From NCBI GenBank assembly GCA_964522215.1, contig CAZFVR010000003.1, positions 43,112 to 107,111 on the forward strand: a DNA stretch of 64,000 bases. The letters run 5' to 3'. Below, piece by piece: positions 13,588-32,388 of this stretch (the stretch's first letter is position 1; each line of letters starts with the position of its first letter). A model generated the notes under the pieces. The model had not been told where the DNA came from and did no database searches. It saw nothing but the letters and a program-made list of their open reading frames with translations. Position numbers and translations under genes: made by a program. This DNA comes from an uncultured Ruminococcus sp. GTDB taxonomy: Bacteria; Bacillota; Clostridia; Oscillospirales; CAG-272.

Positions 13588-14496
13588 TCATTTTTTGAGC
13601 TTTGCGGCTGCATCGCAGATCCGCCTGAGCCTATGATCCACCCCGGATTTTGATATCCTCTGCGGGTGCTTGGATGCAAGCTCCGCTATCGAGCATTCGG
13701 GTTCGCTCTCTCGGAGCACGGCCGTCTCTCGCAAATCATCCGGGAGCAGATCAAACGCCCCCGCCGCACGAAGCGCGGCTATCGCCTCAAGCTGTACGGC
13801 CGATGCACCGACCGCGCGGCTGATATTTTTGACCTCGCAATTAGATGCCCTGTTTATATTACCGCGAAACTCACGAAGCAGGTCGCCTTGTATCAGCTCC
13901 ATGGCCGCCATCGGCGCACCGGCTGAGGATAATATATCCTGTAACTCCGCGCTCTTTTTAAATATAAGCGAACATTTGCCGGATCGCTCTGAATGCCCGG
14001 GCTTTGAATGATCCTTTGCAAACAGCGCCGTCAACTTTTCGGCGCGCACATGGTCGTTTACATCAAGCTCCATGCGCACCGTCTTTTGCGGATCCGAGCA
14101 ACGCGCCGAGGATAGCAAGACCCCGGCGATGAATGCGTTTTTACAATCATCACATTTTAATTCGGGTATTACAGGCTCGCCGTTCGTATGATCACTCTCG
14201 AACGGCTCCGAGAGGCGGTAAAGATACGACGCCAGTCGGCGCGATTCAAATTCAAATACAGATATATGCCTGCCGTAGCAGACCTCGCCGCGTGCCTGCG
14301 GCTCTCTGCCATACTGTTCTGTGAGCAGTTTTTTTACGATATCTGCAACTGCATCGTTTTTTACGCGACACATGACCACGCCCTCTATCCCACACTCGGC
14401 GTTTATCAGCAAGCCGTGCAGATAGCTGCGCCTACAGCAAGCATGCCTCGGGAGCGCCTCGATAAGCTCCGCTCTTAATATATCCCCAAAGCTCAT
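13588..14496 (-). CDS. whiA: DNA-binding sporulation/cell-division regulator WhiA
   Basis: N-terminus MSFGDILRAELIE...CCRRSYLHGLL (LAGLIDADG-like scaffold) and C-terminal HTH ISKSGVDHRLRRI. Its ATG overlaps the murB stop (ATGA). Confidence 0.85.
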   Translation of the reverse strand: MSFGDILRAELIEALPRHACCRRSYLHGLLINAECGIEGVVMCRVKNDAVADIVKKLLTEQYGREPQARGEVCYGRHISVFEFESRRLASYLYRLSEPFESDHTNGEPVIPELKCDDCKNAFIAGVLLSSARCSDPQKTVRMELDVNDHVRAEKLTALFAKDHSKPGHSERSGKCSLIFKKSAELQDILSSAGAPMAAMELIQGDLLREFRGNINRASNCEVKNISRAVGASAVQLEAIAALRAAGAFDLLPDDLRETAVLRESEPECSIAELASKHPQRISKSGVDHRLRRICDAAAKLKK

Positions 14497-16142
14497 TGCG
14501 ATACCGGTATGCGGCACACCTCGCACTGAAGCGAGATGCCGTAATTTTCAAATATTACTCTTTGAATGTGCGCAATAAGTGCATTGACATCAGCGGATGT
14601 TGCACCGCCGACATTGATTATAAATCCCGCGTGCTTTTCGGATACCTGCGCACCGCCTATCCTGTATCCCTTAAGCCCCGAATCCTCGATGAGCTTGCCT
14701 GTGTAGACCGTCGGCGCACTGCGCTTAAACACGCTGCCAGCGCTTGGATATTCAAGCGGCTGTTTTTCGACACGGCGGGACATGTAATCATTCATTTTTT
14801 CAGATATCTTACTTTGATCACATTGCGTGAGCTTGAACCGCGCGGAGATGACGGTATATCTTTCGCCGTCCATGACTATGCTCTTTCTGTACCCAAACCG
14901 CATCTCGGAGGCAGGCAGGGTCACAGTCGTATCCTCGATGGCATCGTAAAGCGTTACGCTCTCGATGACGTCCGCCATCTCGCCGCCGTAAGCACCTGCG
15001 TTCATACACACAGCACCGCCCACACTGCCGGGAATGCCGTATGCAAACTCAAGCCCGCCAAGTCCCGCATTTCGCGCCTCTATGGCAACCGAAAGCAGCG
15101 TGGCACCGGCGGATGCGGTCAGAATATCACCCTCGATAGACTTTCCCCGCAGTTTCTTTGTAAATATGACCGCACCGCGAAAGCCTGCATCGTCAAATAA
15201 TACGTTTGAACCGTTGCCGAGTACGAGCCGCCGCACACTAAGCTCAGCCGCCGTATGAAGCGCCGCCACAAGCTCCCCGGCGGTCTTCGGAAACACGCCA
15301 ATATCCGCCGCACCGCCTATTTTAAAGCTTGAATGAGCGGACAGCGGCTCGGCGATCTTTAGCTCTATCCCGAGCCCCGCCAATTTTTCGGCATAGGCAG
15401 ATAGATTATTTTCGCTCTCACCGCCACCCGCATCCTTTGACTGAGGCACATACTCGACACCGAGTATACCGTAAAGCTCGCAAAGATCGTGTATAACATA
15501 TGTGGGCTTTATATTATCCGGCAGCGCCTTGTGTGTGGGATCGTACCAGCAGGTATCTATCCCCACACCGATGCCGCCGGCGATATCCGATGTCAGCGAG
15601 TCACCTATCACCAGTGCCGCCGATCTGTCAAAATCGGGGATCGACCGCTCAACATGTTCAAAAAACGCCGCCGACGGCTTTTCGTGCCCCACATCCTCGG
15701 AAATAAAGGAGCGTTCTATATACCTTTGTATCGGGGATGCACTCATTCTTTTGGTCTGTATGCTTTTGATACCGTTAGTTATAACAAACAGACGGAAGCC
15801 CGCTGCCGTAAGATCGCGACAAAGAGCATCGGCGCCGCTGATTATATAAGACTGCTCTGCAAGTCTATCTGTATATTCAACTGCCATTTTGTGTGGGTCT
15901 GCCGGGAGCGAATATTCCTCGGCAAACAATTCAAAGCGGCGGACTCTCAGCGTCTGCTTTTCTATTCCTCCGCGTTCAAGCAGCTTCCAAAGCGAATCGT
16001 TTATTCTGCTGTATCCGGTTATCAGCTCATCCGTGGGTTCGATGGAATATCTTTTGAGTGTCTCGGTAAGTGCTTGCCGCTCCGAGCGCTTAAAATCAAG
16101 CAGTGTATCATCGGCATCAAAAAGAAGATATTTGTATTTCAT
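14493..16142 (-). CDS. murB: fusion protein: N-terminal HAD-IA (YjjG-like nucleotidase) domain plus C-terminal UDP-N-acetylenolpyruvoylglucosamine reductase MurB
   Basis: HAD motifs LLFDADDTLLDF, ITNG and GDSLTSDI in residues 1 to about 230. MurB motifs SSFKIGGAAD, GNGSNVLF, GIPGSVGGAVCMNAGAYG, PSAGSVFKR and SEKHAGFIIN follow. One uninterrupted ORF, ATG 16142 behind GAGAGGA. Confidence 0.85.
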   Translation of the reverse strand: MKYKYLLFDADDTLLDFKRSERQALTETLKRYSIEPTDELITGYSRINDSLWKLLERGGIEKQTLRVRRFELFAEEYSLPADPHKMAVEYTDRLAEQSYIISGADALCRDLTAAGFRLFVITNGIKSIQTKRMSASPIQRYIERSFISEDVGHEKPSAAFFEHVERSIPDFDRSAALVIGDSLTSDIAGGIGVGIDTCWYDPTHKALPDNIKPTYVIHDLCELYGILGVEYVPQSKDAGGGESENNLSAYAEKLAGLGIELKIAEPLSAHSSFKIGGAADIGVFPKTAGELVAALHTAAELSVRRLVLGNGSNVLFDDAGFRGAVIFTKKLRGKSIEGDILTASAGATLLSVAIEARNAGLGGLEFAYGIPGSVGGAVCMNAGAYGGEMADVIESVTLYDAIEDTTVTLPASEMRFGYRKSIVMDGERYTVISARFKLTQCDQSKISEKMNDYMSRRVEKQPLEYPSAGSVFKRSAPTVYTGKLIEDSGLKGYRIGGAQVSEKHAGFIINVGGATSADVNALIAHIQRVIFENYGISLQCEVCRIPVSQ

Positions 16143-16335
16143 CACGGCATCCTCTCAAAAATCGTTATGGTCGTTTCATTCTCTACTATTATACACCAAC
16201 ACGCCATGTTTTTCAACCGTTTTTTGCCTTGTTTTGCGAATAATCGGCGCAAGTATGCATCGGGGTATTGCTTTTTGTCGTACTTTGTAGTATAATATAT
16301 TATATATATTCTTCGATATGTATTTGAGGTATAAA

Positions 16336-23765: not shown

Positions 23766-24752
23766 ATGAAAAAAATACCCGAAAAAATCAAGAAAGTTGC
23801 GGCTCTTTTTATGGCGTTGGCACTCGCCTTTGCCACATCACTGGCCGTGTATGCCTCGCTGGTATACGACAGCGCAGTTGACCCGGTAGTTTCACTTTCA
23901 GGACTTGCGCAGTATGTTGAGGATTATGTATTGTCCCCGCTCTCAAATCGCATTGACGATCTCACCGCCAGAGTCAGCGCACTGGAGCTTGGCGGCGGTG
24001 GCGGCGGTGGCGGAGGAGGCATGAACTCCGAAGCCTATCAAGCAATAATGTCACGTATAGCCGCGCTCGAGGAGCAAGGCAAGTCCAAGGATGCAGAGAT
24101 CGCGGCACTAAAAAACAAGCTGCAATCGCTTGAGAACGATCACGGCTCAAGACTCACCGAGATCGAGTCAAACTACTCGAATATATCAAAGCAGATAGAT
24201 TCAATAAATGACTCGATAACCGGCATAAAGAGCAGTATTGAAACACTTCGCGCCGACAAGAACAGTCTTGAAAAGAACTTTTCCGACCTTTCAAACAAAT
24301 ACCTGAGCGTGACAAAGGAGATGAACTCGCTTCGTGCTTCTATCGACGCGCTGACAGGAGATAGCGGTGCGATCACAGATCTGCGCGCAAAATATGATGC
24401 GCTGAGGGAGACAATAGAGCAGCTCCAAACTAAGGCGGGCGTTATGTACAGACCTGTATTTGTTGATGCGGGACAAACGATACGCGCCAAAAACGCCGAC
24501 GAGGGCGTGCTGGTGATAGTAAGATCCGGCTATGCCGTGATAGAATCCCCCTACAATACCTCCGGCACACTGCAGGGCGTGAACGATCTTACCACCGGCG
24601 AGGAGCTTTACAACGGTGCGGATGCGCCGCTGATGCACAACCTGCTGATCCCGCGCGGCGCAGAGGACGGCCGCGGTATTCGCATTGAGAGCTACGACGG
24701 TGCTTATGTTATGATAGGCGGCGAGTACATAATTGAAGATGCCCATGAATAA
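23766..24752 (+). CDS. hypothetical secreted or membrane-anchored coiled-coil protein with a poly-Gly hinge
   Basis: Signal/anchor VAALFMALALAFATSLAVYA, a run of 10 Gly, about 150 aa of heptad-like sequence (LENDHGSRLTEIESNYSNISKQIDSINDSITGIKSSIETL...), and a beta-rich C-terminal domain of about 95 aa. Confidence 0.5.
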   Translation: MKKIPEKIKKVAALFMALALAFATSLAVYASLVYDSAVDPVVSLSGLAQYVEDYVLSPLSNRIDDLTARVSALELGGGGGGGGGGMNSEAYQAIMSRIAALEEQGKSKDAEIAALKNKLQSLENDHGSRLTEIESNYSNISKQIDSINDSITGIKSSIETLRADKNSLEKNFSDLSNKYLSVTKEMNSLRASIDALTGDSGAITDLRAKYDALRETIEQLQTKAGVMYRPVFVDAGQTIRAKNADEGVLVIVRSGYAVIESPYNTSGTLQGVNDLTTGEELYNGADAPLMHNLLIPRGAEDGRGIRIESYDGAYVMIGGEYIIEDAHE

Positions 24753-28683: not shown

Positions 28684-28710
28684 TGCCGTCATATGCCGCA
28701 TAACTAAAAA

Positions 28711-28749
28711 CCATCGGCTGTAACGCCCCGCGTTACAGCCGATGGTTTT
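28711..28749. terminator. bidirectional intrinsic terminator (deoC / 5S-like gene)
   Basis: Stem ccatcggctgtaacg / cgttacagccgatgg, flanked by AAAAA and TTTT. Confidence 0.7.
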
Positions 28750-28756
28750 GAATTAA

Positions 28757-29998
28757 TTAAATTATATGTATACCGCAAGACGGTACCGAATTAAGCTCGT
28801 CAATACCATACCTTTCGCATTTGCGGTGCTCAAAAAAAGCAACAGCGGCATCACCCGCCATCGCATAGGTGAGGATATCCTCCGCCTGCTCAAGATACGG
28901 TGCGATCTCGGTACGCAGTGTGTCAAGCTCCGGCTCTAAAAGATCCGCCGGGCGCGTGAGCACCATTGATGCATTGCCGCCCAGGGCCGACATAACATCG
29001 GGAGATGGCGGCATGGGCAGTCTACCGTAAAGCCCGCTGACGAGCGCACGGTAGCCGGCCGAAAGCTCGGGGGTGGCGGCAGCCCCATTACTGTGGTAAA
29101 GCGCCGCGGCGCGCTCAATTATAAGCTCGTCAAGCGGCGCGGCCATAGTTGGCCAGCCCGCCTCACGCCTTGCACGCTCAATATAATCATCGGGTGGAAT
29201 AGAATGCCCATCAGTGGGGGTGGCTTTGTTTGCGAGCGGTAACGCCTTTTTGATCTCGTCCCATGCGCCGCCGAGCAACTCGCGGCCGATCGGGGCAGGA
29301 ATGCCGCAAAGATCGATATCAACTCCCGCCACACGATCGTTGGCAAGTATATCACGCGGCGATAGACACTGCATGTCACCTGCACCGATCACAAGAGGGA
29401 TCGATATCGCGCCGCCGACCACCGAGGTGAGTTCACTAAGCGTTTGGGTGTCAAGCTTTTGCTCCGGGTCGAGGATACAAACACGATCCGCACCAGCTCC
29501 CTCAAGTAGTGAGGCATAGCCGGCAAAAAAAGCAGCGCTGCAAGCGGGCCCCGTGGTGTACACCATTGCAGCCTCAAGGTCAAGATCATACTTTTTTGCG
29601 GCTCTCATCACCGTTTCGATATTGCGCGGATCGTTTAACGCATCGTAAACGCGGATGGCGCCAATACCGTTCTCCGCCGTGCGCGCCACCAGATATTCAA
29701 CAACATCATCGGCATAGATCCCACGTCCCAGCAGTGATTGACCACGCAAAGTAAGGCGCAGACGTGTGTTTTTGACACCATCACGCAACGCACGCAGTTG
29801 CTCCCAAGGATCGATGGCCGAGCGCTCGGTAAGCGACTCACCAAGGAAGCTGTCAGCTCCCCAAAGCTCTGCCGCACAAAGTCCCGCACTATCGATCGCA
29901 GCGAGGAGTGATGAAAGCTTTTCTCGGTCAAGTCCACGCAAAAGATTTGGTGGGACAACGGCGCAGATGCGCTTTTGCGCGCATGGTGCAACATTCAT
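28757..29998 (-). CDS. 5S/OadA-like carboxyltransferase-fold protein lacking a biotinyl domain and the canonical metal ligands (probable pseudoenzyme)
   Basis: Clear similarity to the OadA/PycB/5S TIM barrel: DPWEQLRALR, LRGQSLLGRGIYADDVVEYLV and RVYDALNDPRNIE. The C-terminal PYC_OADA-like region has RPADLLEPELD. ATGA overlap with the upstream small ORF. Confidence 0.7.
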   Translation of the reverse strand: MNVAPCAQKRICAVVPPNLLRGLDREKLSSLLAAIDSAGLCAAELWGADSFLGESLTERSAIDPWEQLRALRDGVKNTRLRLTLRGQSLLGRGIYADDVVEYLVARTAENGIGAIRVYDALNDPRNIETVMRAAKKYDLDLEAAMVYTTGPACSAAFFAGYASLLEGAGADRVCILDPEQKLDTQTLSELTSVVGGAISIPLVIGAGDMQCLSPRDILANDRVAGVDIDLCGIPAPIGRELLGGAWDEIKKALPLANKATPTDGHSIPPDDYIERARREAGWPTMAAPLDELIIERAAALYHSNGAAATPELSAGYRALVSGLYGRLPMPPSPDVMSALGGNASMVLTRPADLLEPELDTLRTEIAPYLEQAEDILTYAMAGDAAVAFFEHRKCERYGIDELNSVPSCGIHII

Positions 29999-30183
29999 CT
30001 TTTCAGACCCGCATCCGTCACTGACGGCTTATCGACAGTTCGCGGCAGGTCGGCGAAAGCGGCGTTAGGTGCATTCTCATTATCGCACACGTCCTCCGCG
30101 GGCAGTTCCTCAACCTCAACGATATAGTCCCGCCCCTCTACCTTTACCTTAAATCTTCTTTTCTTTGTATTATTCTCGCTCAT
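29995..30183 (-). CDS. small protein resembling only the N-terminal beta-hairpin of 1.3S/MmdC/GcdC biotin carriers (no biotinyl domain)
   Basis: RFKVKVEGRDYIVEVEEL matches the KxxVxVNGxxYxVxVE N-terminal signature of decarboxylase/transcarboxylase biotin carriers. There is no (A/V)MKM motif. Start ATG 30183 lies 7 nt after GGAG; the ORF track extends to 30225. Confidence 0.4.
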   Translation of the reverse strand: MSENNTKKRRFKVKVEGRDYIVEVEELPAEDVCDNENAPNAAFADLPRTVDKPSVTDAGLKR

Positions 30184-30212
30184 TTTCATCTCCGTATCTG
30201 CCCGGGCGACTA

Positions 30213-30605
30213 TCATCTGTTCCACGGATGAGCGCCGCCGGAGCGCTTAAATGCAACCACTCTGAATTTAGGCACAGTTTTTTTCTCTGTCTCAGCCTCG
30301 GCATTTATATACGCCGTTACGGCCGCTGTTACTGCGGCAACCAAACGCGCCTCCTCGGCTCGTCTTAACGCCTCGGCGAACATGGCCTCCCGGCGCTCGC
30401 GTTCAAGCTCCGCCGCGATGCGTGCTCTTTCTTTTTCTGCCGCCGCTTCCGCCAAGCGCCGTTCGGCTTCAAGGCGTTCTGCCGCCGCGCGTTCGGCTTT
30501 TTTCTTTTTATTTAAAAACATGAGTAATATGACAGCTACCGATACAACTACCGCCACTACGATGGCAGCAATGATGATAGGCCGCAGATCCATTCCGGCG
30601 TTCAT
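30213..30605 (-). CDS. OadG-family-like membrane anchor subunit with an inserted charged coiled-coil
   Basis: N-terminal TM IIIAAIVVAVVVSVAVILLMFL. C-terminal LVAAVTAAVTAYI...FRVVAFKR...W resembles the clostridial OadG/MmdD-type ending. ATGA overlap with the carboxyltransferase stop. Confidence 0.55.
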   Translation of the reverse strand: MNAGMDLRPIIIAAIVVAVVVSVAVILLMFLNKKKKAERAAAERLEAERRLAEAAAEKERARIAAELERERREAMFAEALRRAEEARLVAAVTAAVTAYINAEAETEKKTVPKFRVVAFKRSGGAHPWNR

Positions 30606-32134
30606 CGTTGTCTGCGCCCCTCTCTGCCACCCGGCCGCGTGTGCACACGCGACTTTGCTGCCAGCATCATGACAGCCGAGGTTATCCTTGCGCGCAGCTC
30701 CTGCGGCTCGATAATATCATCGATCTGCCCGCGCATGGCGGCATCTGCAGGGGATGCAAGCTCGCTTTGCCACTTTGCCTCAAGCTCCTCGCGGCTCACC
30801 GTAACATCATTGGCGCAGATGCGGTCATTCCAAACAAATGCCACAGACGCCTCCGGCGACATCGGGCTGATGCACGCCTCAGGGAGCGCCAAAGCAATAT
30901 CGCCGCCAACCGACCGTGATGCCATAAGCGTAAAACCAATACCATAGGCATGACCGAGTATCACGCTGATCTTTGCATTTTCGGATACTGCCATTGCGCG
31001 GTACAGCTCGGATAGCGCCTCGGCATATGCCGCCGCATCAGGTTCTTCCCTGTCCGCGCCATCGCTGGCAACAAGTGTGATCAGCGGTATACCAAAGCTA
31101 TCGCAAAAGCATATTATATGCGCCAGTCTTCGGCAAACATCACGGGTGATAACACCGCCGCGGACTGTCGGCTCGTTTGCCGCAAGACAACACACAACGC
31201 CACCGATATATGCCAGCCCTACCGAAAGCTCCGGTGTGTTGCCGCCAAGGAATATCACATTATCATCATCAGACAGTGCGGTTATAAGACGTCTGCCGCT
31301 CGGCATGCCGGTACCGTCCTTTTGCGCGACCTGTCCCAATGCATATAACAGCTCCGGCGGCAGCGGGCGATCGAGCACCTGCATGTCGGATACGCGAGAG
31401 CCCTCGTTGCAGTTGGACGGCAGATATGAAAGCAGCTCGCGGGTGCGTAGATAAAGCTCATCCTCGTCATCCACAACTATATCGCAGATATCCTCCAGTG
31501 GGTCGACTGCAGGCTTCGCGTCGCCCCCTATAAACGGAGGGACAACATAAAATTCACCCTGCCCTCTCACGGCCAGTTTTATATCAAAGGATGCGGCAAG
31601 CGTTGCCATGCCACCGCCGCATATACCCGGAACGAGAGCAACGGTCGGCAGAATACCGCGGGCGGCCTCAAACTGCCGCATGACCTCACCATATGCTGCC
31701 AGTACACGCGAGCCCTCATAGATCGATGCACCGTGTGAATCAAATATTCCCACTATCGGTGCACCGTTGCGAATTGCAAGGCGTATAAGCTCTGTTATCT
31801 TGCCCGCCGCCACGCTGTCAAACGCTCCGCACATGCGGGCATTATCCTGCACAAAGGCGTAAACAAGTCTGCCCCCAACCGCTCCGTAGCCTGTTATAAC
31901 GGATGAAAAGACCGCGCCCGGTTCATCCTCGACATCACTGCGTGCTATGTACGCGCCTGTTTCCGCGAATGTGCCCATATCAAACAAAGCCGTGATACGC
32001 GCGCGAGCGTTATATCCGCCATTCGCTTCTTTTATTGAGCTAATGTCGATATTTTTCAGCATTTCGCTGAGCTTGCTTGCGGCAATCGCCCCAAGCACAC
32101 TTTTTTTGCGCTCACTGCGATCGGTATTTTCCAT
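30602..32134 (-). CDS. carboxyltransferase (12S / MmdA / PccB family), divergent
   Basis: Aligns by eye along its length with the 12S/PccB family: ARARITALFDMGTFAE, ITGYGAVGGRLVYAFVQD, DSHGASIYEG, PGICGGGMATLA, CDSFGIPLITLV and RGQIDDIIEPQELR. Confidence 0.75.
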   Translation of the reverse strand: MENTDRSERKKSVLGAIAASKLSEMLKNIDISSIKEANGGYNARARITALFDMGTFAETGAYIARSDVEDEPGAVFSSVITGYGAVGGRLVYAFVQDNARMCGAFDSVAAGKITELIRLAIRNGAPIVGIFDSHGASIYEGSRVLAAYGEVMRQFEAARGILPTVALVPGICGGGMATLAASFDIKLAVRGQGEFYVVPPFIGGDAKPAVDPLEDICDIVVDDEDELYLRTRELLSYLPSNCNEGSRVSDMQVLDRPLPPELLYALGQVAQKDGTGMPSGRRLITALSDDDNVIFLGGNTPELSVGLAYIGGVVCCLAANEPTVRGGVITRDVCRRLAHIICFCDSFGIPLITLVASDGADREEPDAAAYAEALSELYRAMAVSENAKISVILGHAYGIGFTLMASRSVGGDIALALPEACISPMSPEASVAFVWNDRICANDVTVSREELEAKWQSELASPADAAMRGQIDDIIEPQELRARITSAVMMLAAKSRVHTRPGGREGRRQR

Positions 32135-32388
32135 AGTAGATCCGTTCCGCCACCACTCGGGCGGCTGTTTTTTCTTGATAGATGTTTATTTACAAGACCG
32201 TATAACTGATTATTATTGTAACGACGATCCTTCCGACCTCGCTGTGCTCGGCCACCGACCTTTACACAAGAGAGGCGTGGGGATAGTGCTAGCATTGCAT
32301 GAGAACATAAAACAACAGCAGAAATTTAATAATAATCCAATTTCTATATTTCTTTAAAATAAAGACCGAACTCTTGCCAAGCTGCTTA

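Follow-up and report, generated by a model that had tools for sequence, protein, structure and literature searches.

Swinging-arm catalysis has its textbook examples in the biotin-dependent carboxyltransferase complexes. In the transcarboxylase of P. shermanii, comprising 12S, 5S and 1.3S subunits, the N-terminal residues of 1.3S tether 12S to 5S. The fold of the carboxyltransferase (CT) may also be used without the cofactor; in malonate decarboxylase the CT-fold subunits MdcD and MdcE decarboxylate a malonyl thioester without biotin. The metal ligands of 5S are a carbamylated lysine, one aspartate and two histidines, according to a passage of PMC10604320 that cites Hall 2004. In the Na+-translocating oxaloacetate decarboxylase (OAD) the C-terminal tail of the gamma subunit binds the association domain of the alpha subunit, and has been proposed to form a structure resembling the tetramerization domain of pyruvate carboxylase (PT-like; PMC7274780). 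Here we describe a locus in a 64,000-nucleotide stretch of DNA (the window) from an uncultured Ruminococcus sp. (contig CAZFVR010000003.1, positions 43,112–107,111). It contains a cassette of four genes, the last of which encodes a homologue of OadA and 5S that has none of the four metal ligands.

We consider that this protein, referred to below as the ligand-less OadA, is probably a catalytically dead descendant of the 465-amino acid (aa) OadA/5S of clostridia, and that it has been kept as a non-catalytic structural subunit of a reduced operon. A literature search found no description of ligand-less OadA/5S proteins or of biotin-less decarboxylase operons.

The ligand-less OadA and its former active site

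The gene for the ligand-less OadA lies on the minus strand at 28757–29998. It is an intact open reading frame (ORF) of 413 aa with an ATG start, as described in an earlier reading of the window from the sequence only (the sequence-only reading). The protein is unambiguously a homologue of the pyruvate/oxaloacetate carboxyltransferase of transcarboxylase 5S, OadA and the two-subunit pyruvate carboxylase (PycB). A phmmer search of the PDB returns 5ks8_C (5e-47), 1rqb (5S, 6.5e-36) and 2nx9 (V. cholerae OadA, 1.4e-32), and a profile of the ligand-less family matches the same three structures with E-values between 1e-85 and 8e-75. The AlphaFold2 (AF2) model (pLDDT 86.3, pTM 0.88) has eight barrel strands followed by a helical C-terminal domain, and is aligned by Foldseek with 5ks8, 1rqb and 2nx9 at TMq values of 0.79–0.82 (0.79 for V. 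cholerae OadA). The Pfam model PYC_OADA matches the protein with 37.7 bits (cut-off 27), so that both domains of the OadA/5S fold, the TIM barrel and the PYC_OADA domain, are found; the HMGL-like barrel model (PF00682) gives no match at E ≤ 0.1. The NCBIfam equivalog models for oadA, pycB and 5S score the protein at 130–203 bits, the best being 202.5 bits against a cut-off of 718 (the cut-offs range from 718 to 954). Three blocks that the sequence-only reading had picked out as conserved are indeed so: DPWEQLRALR (residues 63–72), LRGQSLLGRGIYADDVVEYLV (84–104) and RVYDALNDPRNIE (116–128). Overall the protein is 30–35% identical to clostridial OadA, with which it also shares its position as the last gene of the cluster.

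While the fold is retained, the active site is not. The segment CILDPEQ (174–180) aligns with CIKDM, ALKDM or AIKDM of canonical proteins, so the position of the carbamylated lysine (which we take to be Lys184 in the numbering of 5S) is occupied by Leu176 (codon at 29471–29473, minus strand). Similarly PLVIGAG (201–207) aligns with PIHLHAH or PVQLHTH, and the two histidines of the His-x-His ligand pair are thereby replaced by Val203 and Gly205 (the codons of Val203, Ile204 and Gly205 are at 29384–29392, minus strand). The canonical LRDAH segment, carrying the aspartate ligand and a substrate-binding arginine, is missing. It corresponds to a gap of five residues after Val15 in the N-terminal sequence RICAVVPPNLLRGLD, at the Val15–Pro16 junction (29951–29956, minus strand), and neither phmmer nor the family profile aligns anything before residue 25–30 with the PDB structures. 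A further ~56 residues have been deleted after barrel strand 8, including the threonine motif GTSQP and the YQVPGGM block.

From work on pyruvate carboxylase, we take the substrate-binding and catalytic residues to be the arginine and glutamine of RDAHQS, the arginine of LRGQN and the threonine of GTSQP. The RDAHQ segment and the threonine loop fall in the deletions; the window protein retains the arginine of LRGQ (Arg85), a position that is R, A, G, C or S across the ligand-less family. In an alignment of 244 homologues the complete canonical set R-D-Q-R-K-H-H-T is found in 127; D, K, H and H are all absent from the window protein. The positions that replace the ligands vary freely inside the family (L/I/F/C, G/S/E/T and G/C/V).

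The sequence-only reading had claimed the loss of all four ligands from a comparison with the carboxyltransferase domain of Vibrio OadA and 5S, with the RDAHQS motif, the lysine of AIKDMSG and the histidine pair of HLHCH each replaced. Alignment by sequence, by profile and by structure places no Asp, Lys, His and His at the ligand positions, and the claim was if anything understated, since the segment with the threonine motif is gone as well. Judged from its sequence, the protein has no means of binding the catalytic metal as its ancestor did. Its fold is that of OadA/5S, but the defining catalytic features are missing, and annotation as a subunit of oxaloacetate decarboxylase or of pyruvate carboxylase would be wrong.

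The four-gene cassette and its relatives

The cassette comprises four ORFs on the minus strand, encoding in order a 12S-like CT, an OadG-like anchor, a stub of a biotin carboxyl carrier protein (BCCP) and the ligand-less OadA. They are joined by three ATGA overlaps of stop and start codons, at 30602–30605, 30213–30216 and 29995–29998; the last of these bears out the translational coupling that had been claimed for the ligand-less OadA and the ORF upstream of it. The CT (30602–32134, minus strand, 510 aa) is of the 12S/MmdA/PccB type. It matches Pfam Carboxyl_trans (7.4e-53) and, in the PDB, 1x0u (1.3e-51) and 1on3 (12S, 1.6e-46). A 12S-type CT and a 5S homologue are thus encoded in the same operon, as expected of a transcarboxylase.

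The OadG-like subunit (30213–30605, minus strand, 130 aa) consists of an N-terminal transmembrane helix, a helix rich in Glu, Arg and Ala, and a conserved tail, LVAAVTAAVTAY...KFRVVAFKRSGGAHPWNR. Pfam OAD_gamma does not match the window protein directly. Its tail is matched by hhalign to the Pfam-positive OadG proteins of canonical clusters with a probability of 96.9% (E 1.8e-10), and the combination of a membrane helix with a predicted alpha-binding tail is that of a putative gamma/delta anchor. The stub (29995–30216, minus strand, 73 aa), which overlaps its neighbours by ATGA at each end, corresponds to a 1.3S-type biotin carrier in its N-terminal hairpin only (KRRFKVKVEGRDYIVEVEEL), which is followed by a poorly conserved and variable acidic tail. 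It aligns with canonical BCCPs over 22 columns, all at the BCCP N-terminus (hhalign probability 94.6%, E 6.6e-8). Neither Biotin_lipoyl nor any other Pfam family matches the stub, and the (A/V)MKM motif of a biotinyl carrier is absent.

Neither a biotinyl domain nor OadB (OAD_beta) is encoded anywhere in the 64 kb of the window, or up to 10 kb from the gene for the ligand-less OadA at nine other loci (L001, L004–L007, L011 and L091–L093; for OadB, phmmer with two clostridial OadB seeds). Because OadB, the biotinyl domain and the active site of OadA have all been lost, neither biotin carboxyl transfer nor oxaloacetate/pyruvate chemistry would take place in the cassette. The ligand-less OadA is thus one element of a loss of biotin chemistry that extends over the whole operon, a context absent from the sequence-only reading.

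Canonical clusters of related clostridia have one of two architectures. In one the order is CT-BCCP-OadA, for example in Bittarella massiliensis; in the other it is CT-OadG-BCCP-OadB-OadA, as seen at L016, where Pfam identifies OAD_gamma (4e-20), Biotin_lipoyl (5e-23) and OAD_beta (1e-156). In both, OadA is 465 aa in length and the carrier is encoded by a separate gene. The sequence-only reading was therefore correct that the ligand-less OadA has no C-terminal biotinyl domain, but this absence is not a sign of degeneration. The window cassette has the order of the second architecture, from which OadB and the biotinyl domain have been subtracted, and on the strength of gene order and homology we conclude that it is derived by reduction from a clostridial CT-OadG-BCCP-OadB-OadA cluster.

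The next-best matches of the family profile are full-length OadA-like proteins (466–467 aa) with partial loss of the ligands, encoded in three clusters of their own. In P0126 (L095) the canonical D-K-H-H is replaced by N-K-Q-H, in P0128 (L094) by G-Q-S-H and in P0131 (L096) by D-Q-H-H. The cluster at L095 is CT-BCCP-OadA', and those at L094 and L096 are CT-OadG-BCCP-OadA' (the prime denoting the degenerate subunit); OadB is found in none of the three. Two of the three have full-size carriers in which the biotinylated lysine of the canonical EAMKM motif is replaced, by glutamate at L094 (1408–1764, EAMEI) and by aspartate at L095 (6059–6421, KVMDI), while the lysine is kept at L096 (EAMKV). By comparison, D-K-H-H and the MK motif are both kept in 62 of 62 canonical loci with a complete BCCP. 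Disappearance of the metal site of OadA thus goes hand in hand with that of the biotin attachment site. The three clusters look like earlier stages of the reduction seen in the window, or parallels to it. Further homologues of OadA, 5S or PycB without some or all of the ligands are P0139, P0147, P0167, P0178, P0182–P0185, P0194, P0197, P0199, P0203 and P0204; some of the ligand-poor proteins are ~600 aa in length with a fused carrier, and the ligand columns of the most divergent ones are tentative. Such proteins recur in the database scan, and the phenomenon is therefore broader than the window locus.

The cassette may be compared with each of the described systems. It resembles the transcarboxylase of P. 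shermanii in having homologues of 12S and 5S together with a protein that matches the N-terminal assembly segment of 1.3S; it differs from it in having no biotinyl domain or carboxyl carrier, in the loss of the 5S active site and in the additional OadG-like membrane subunit. The transcarboxylase-type trio CT-BCCP-OadA is intact in Bittarella, a relative. With the Na+-translocating decarboxylases of oxaloacetate, methylmalonyl-CoA and glutaconyl-CoA the cassette shares the order CT-OadG-(carrier)-...-OadA and a homologous OadG-like tail, whereas it has no beta pump in cis, its carrier is a stub, its alpha subunit is dead, and in two lineages its anchor has no helix. Separate genes for the alpha subunit and the carrier, as in the cassette, are also found in the split OadA/B/D/H enzyme of E. 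faecalis (PMC6193673). The resemblance of the CT to MdcD/MdcE is small. It matches the beta-subunit models weakly (1e-12 and 2e-11), far below the cut-offs, it is a single chain of MmdA/PccB type, and there are no genes for an acyl carrier protein or Mdc accessory proteins nearby.

Selection, spread and surroundings

The ratio of non-synonymous to synonymous substitution (dN/dS, omega) was calculated by the method of Nei and Gojobori against an 85%-identical orthologue (dS 0.39). For the ligand-less OadA it is 0.21 (bootstrap 95% interval 0.155–0.29), and it is 0.20 in two further, deeper pairs. The protein is thus under purifying selection. For the same orthologue pair omega is 0.075 for the CT, 0.13 for the anchor, 0.19 for the stub and 0.006–0.045 for the neighbouring genes. 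Canonical OadA pairs give 0.023–0.054, so that the constraint on the ligand-less OadA is 5–9 times weaker; the CTs of intact clusters give 0.07–0.18, a range that includes the CTs of the cassette (0.075–0.11 overall). From these baselines the ligand-less OadA has lost most of its constraint but not all, and the CT has lost none.

Constraint is distributed unevenly along the ligand-less OadA. Omega is 0.05–0.10 in residues 61–130 (DPWE...NDPRN) and 0.05–0.07 in residues 331–413, which form the C-terminal helices and the terminal strand. It rises to 0.3–0.7 in residues 2–60 and 201–268, comprising the former ligand-bearing strands and the deletion junction.

Intact orthologues of 349–413 aa are found at at least 10 loci, in the same four-gene cassette and in the same order (the cassette is conserved at L001–L005, L007, L009, L011 and L091–L093), and there are no frameshifts or stop codons among them. 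The ends of the genes abut or overlap across related loci, dS being above 1 between lineages and saturated between the deeper ones. Where the contig extends far enough the neighbourhood is also kept, with a gene for an AsnC-type regulator and an aminotransferase gene upstream, and deoC, a gene for a PHP-domain protein and spoIID downstream. With its catalytic residues gone, purifying selection acting and its orthologues intact, the protein would be classed as a pseudoenzyme, and the suggestion of the sequence-only reading that it is maintained rather than decaying is upheld, at a constraint weaker than that of canonical OadA.

In a neighbour-joining tree the short ligand-less family forms a single clade with 100% bootstrap support and long branches. 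The clade is taxonomically narrow and fast-evolving, and not ancient. In a scan of GTDB species genomes, L011 (a metagenome-assembled genome of an uncultured member of the Eubacteriales) is the only locus of the ligand-less type among the best 80 matches listed. A metagenomic protein of 510 aa (P0100) is 51% identical to the ligand-less OadA over 46% of the query and has in addition EIIA/EIIB domains of the PTS (Pfam); its gene lies on a contig of 2.9 kb and is perhaps chimeric, through gene calling or misassembly.

On the 3′ side the gene for the ligand-less OadA converges with deoC. Between them (28701–28755) lies a perfect hairpin of 20 bp, flanked by runs of A and T, with a predicted folding energy of −36.7 kcal/mol (z −8.3) that was equalled in none of 200 shuffled sequences; this is likely a bidirectional intrinsic terminator that closes the operon. 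The CT gene is preceded on its 5′ side by an intergenic leader of 254 nt (32135–32388, minus strand), in which consensus matching picks out a weak sigma-70-like match (32358–32329), a candidate promoter, and which has a GC hairpin beside the start codon (32164–32147). The 3′ arm of this hairpin, GGCGG, is ~10 nt before the start codon of the CT, and might occlude a ribosome-binding site. At L001 the corresponding spacer is 26 nt in length, so that not all loci share the leader. No Rfam family reaches its gathering score in the 64-kb window, and no tRNA, rRNA or riboswitch is found there, so that there is no riboswitch clue for the leader.

The remainder of the window is ordinary housekeeping, encoding SecA, DnaE, MurB, RF1, PolA and Ffh. 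An unusual ORF of 550 aa (14493–16145, minus strand) fuses an N-terminal HAD-type hydrolase domain to a complete MurB (FAD_binding_4 and MurB_C). A gene at 23766–24752 (plus strand) encodes a 328-aa protein for which Pfam gives faint matches only. Its N-terminus resembles a signal or anchor sequence, and it contains ten consecutive glycines as well as heptads of the coiled-coil type; it overlaps the start of the gene for a SpoIID-domain protein, a position that is kept in all related loci. A role of the cassette in defence was also considered and rejected. PADLOC matches no system in it, and finds only two weak, low-complexity matches to the anchor.

Function of the cassette

What the cassette has kept are elements of the assembly type: from OadA, the barrel core and the C-terminal domain that ends in the strand G(I/V)H(I/V)(I/V); from the carrier, its tethering hairpin; and from OadG, the C-terminal tail. 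We infer from these that the proteins of the cassette assemble physically, and that the CT has an enzymatic activity with its own substrate. In the mechanism that we propose, the C-terminal strand of OadA, the hairpin of the stub and the FRVVAFKR strand of the OadG-like protein would still dock together, and through the docked pieces the CT oligomer would carry the dead subunit in the form of dimers. The OadG helix would tether the complex to the membrane in most lineages. The CT, with its constraint unchanged, would be the likely functional core, and its dead partners may persist because the CT came to depend on them for assembly or stability. Most speculatively, the CT may now be independent of biotin, for example as a plain decarboxylase of the (methyl)malonyl-CoA type; that it acts without biotin is a conjecture, drawn by analogy. 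That a gut clostridial lineage should have a biotin-independent 12S-type CT (such as a direct acyl-CoA decarboxylase) locked within the fossil architecture of a Na+ pump or transcarboxylase is a rather doubtful proposal.

Several points weigh against retention of the dead subunit as a structural component. The genome was viewed through a window of 64 kb, and a BCCP, an OadB or an intact OadA could possibly be encoded elsewhere in it. The membrane helix of the anchor is kept in most lineages, which is unexplained if there is no membrane partner. The cassette evolves far faster than its neighbours, suggesting that the constraint on its function is weak or shifting; in a comparison of the window with L001, the neighbouring housekeeping proteins are 85–91% identical, and the CT, anchor, stub and ligand-less OadA 63, 51, 31 and 45%, respectively. 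The clade is also small. An exhaustive profile search of 1.84 billion representatives found ~5 short-form clusters at 50% identity, after which the scores fall to the full-length homologues. Finally, the oxyanion-hole motifs of the CT (CGGG and AYG-I/M/V-GF) differ from the canonical ones, but they vary in intact clusters too and act through backbone amides, and so do not bear on whether the CT is active without biotin.

The best-surviving alternative, which we nevertheless think unlikely, is complementation in trans. The CT would then use a biotin carrier and beta pump (or an intact OadA/5S) encoded elsewhere, for which the view of 64 kb leaves room, with the ligand-less OadA serving as an adaptor. 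The CT is as constrained as those of intact clusters, as would be expected, and the retained helix of the OadG-like protein would be accommodated. Yet the stub already takes up the hairpin by which a real carrier would have to dock, and in the related clusters at L094 and L095 the replacement of the biotinyl lysine by Glu or Asp indicates that those complexes are not using biotin. The proximity screen described above found no OadB or biotinyl domain near the nine other loci. Moreover, the OadG-like proteins of L091 (9488–9781) and L092 (9485–9784) lack the membrane helix at the N-terminus, ~24 residues having been deleted in frame, while the C-terminal tail is kept. All else is retained at these two loci, which speaks against any need for a membrane beta subunit.

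A regulatory role is improbable, although it has a clear precedent in the BADC proteins of plants, biotin-less BCCP homologues that inhibit heteromeric acetyl-CoA carboxylase (PMC12706156; 10.1101/634550). The ligand-less OadA, stub and anchor would in the same way compete with active subunits and so down-regulate a paralogous CT, decarboxylase or transcarboxylase, or alternatively sense a metabolite. As with BADC, a subunit of a biotin enzyme has lost its biotin-bearing function and yet been maintained, and the lysine-replaced BCCPs of L094 and L095 are in exactly that situation. The conserved elements of the cassette are protein-binding elements, and fast evolution is typical of regulators. 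BADCs, however, are under separate regulation and inhibit an enzyme that is otherwise active (PMC12706156). In the cassette all of the biotin-linked parts are disabled together, and translation of the genes is coupled to that of their own CT in an operon of fixed 1:1:1:1 composition, an arrangement that predicts no separate expression. No paralogous active system was seen. Sensing of a metabolite in what was the substrate pocket is disfavoured by the constraint on that pocket, the lowest in the protein, and by the variability of Arg85 of LRGQ within the family.

It is very improbable that the ligand-less OadA is still an enzyme, through catalytic residues that have migrated or a new, metal-independent activity of the barrel. 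The predicted barrel is complete with its eight strands, and the motifs near the old funnel (DPWE, GQxLLG and YDALNDPRN) are invariant. Yet every invariant residue is ancestral and common to canonical enzymes, there is no new polar motif specific to the family, the variation at the ligand-replacing positions is free and omega is highest around strands 1, 7 and 8, while the substrate arginine, threonine loop and RDAHQ segment are gone; a relocated active site was rejected on these patterns of omega and conservation. Least credible of all is plain pseudogenisation, in which the operon would be a neutral relic as yet undisrupted: the 5–9-fold relaxation, the indels in the 201–268 region and the narrow distribution would fit, but it is rejected on an omega of which the upper bootstrap bound is 0.29, with two segments at 0.05–0.10, and on four intact ORFs whose order, neighbourhood and abutting or overlapping ends have been kept across saturated dS.

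We therefore return to retention as a non-catalytic structural subunit, and rate the cassette as a pseudoenzyme remnant of a biotin enzyme complex. Annotation by similarity would be expected to name such genes as oxaloacetate decarboxylase or as subunit B of pyruvate carboxylase, and metabolic reconstructions of gut Clostridia would then be wrongly credited with a Na+ pump or an anaplerotic reaction. Although the cassette has lost its swinging arm, its second active site and its pump, the four proteins that remain are still under selection. It is thus a natural dissection of the OadA/5S, carrier and OadG subunits into their assembly and catalytic parts. It also offers a possible evolutionary route from biotin-dependent to biotin-independent acyl-CoA decarboxylation. 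If the CT is indeed independent of biotin, the degenerate full-length clusters would be earlier stages on that route, and together with the cassette would form a natural series of a biotin complex shedding its cofactor.

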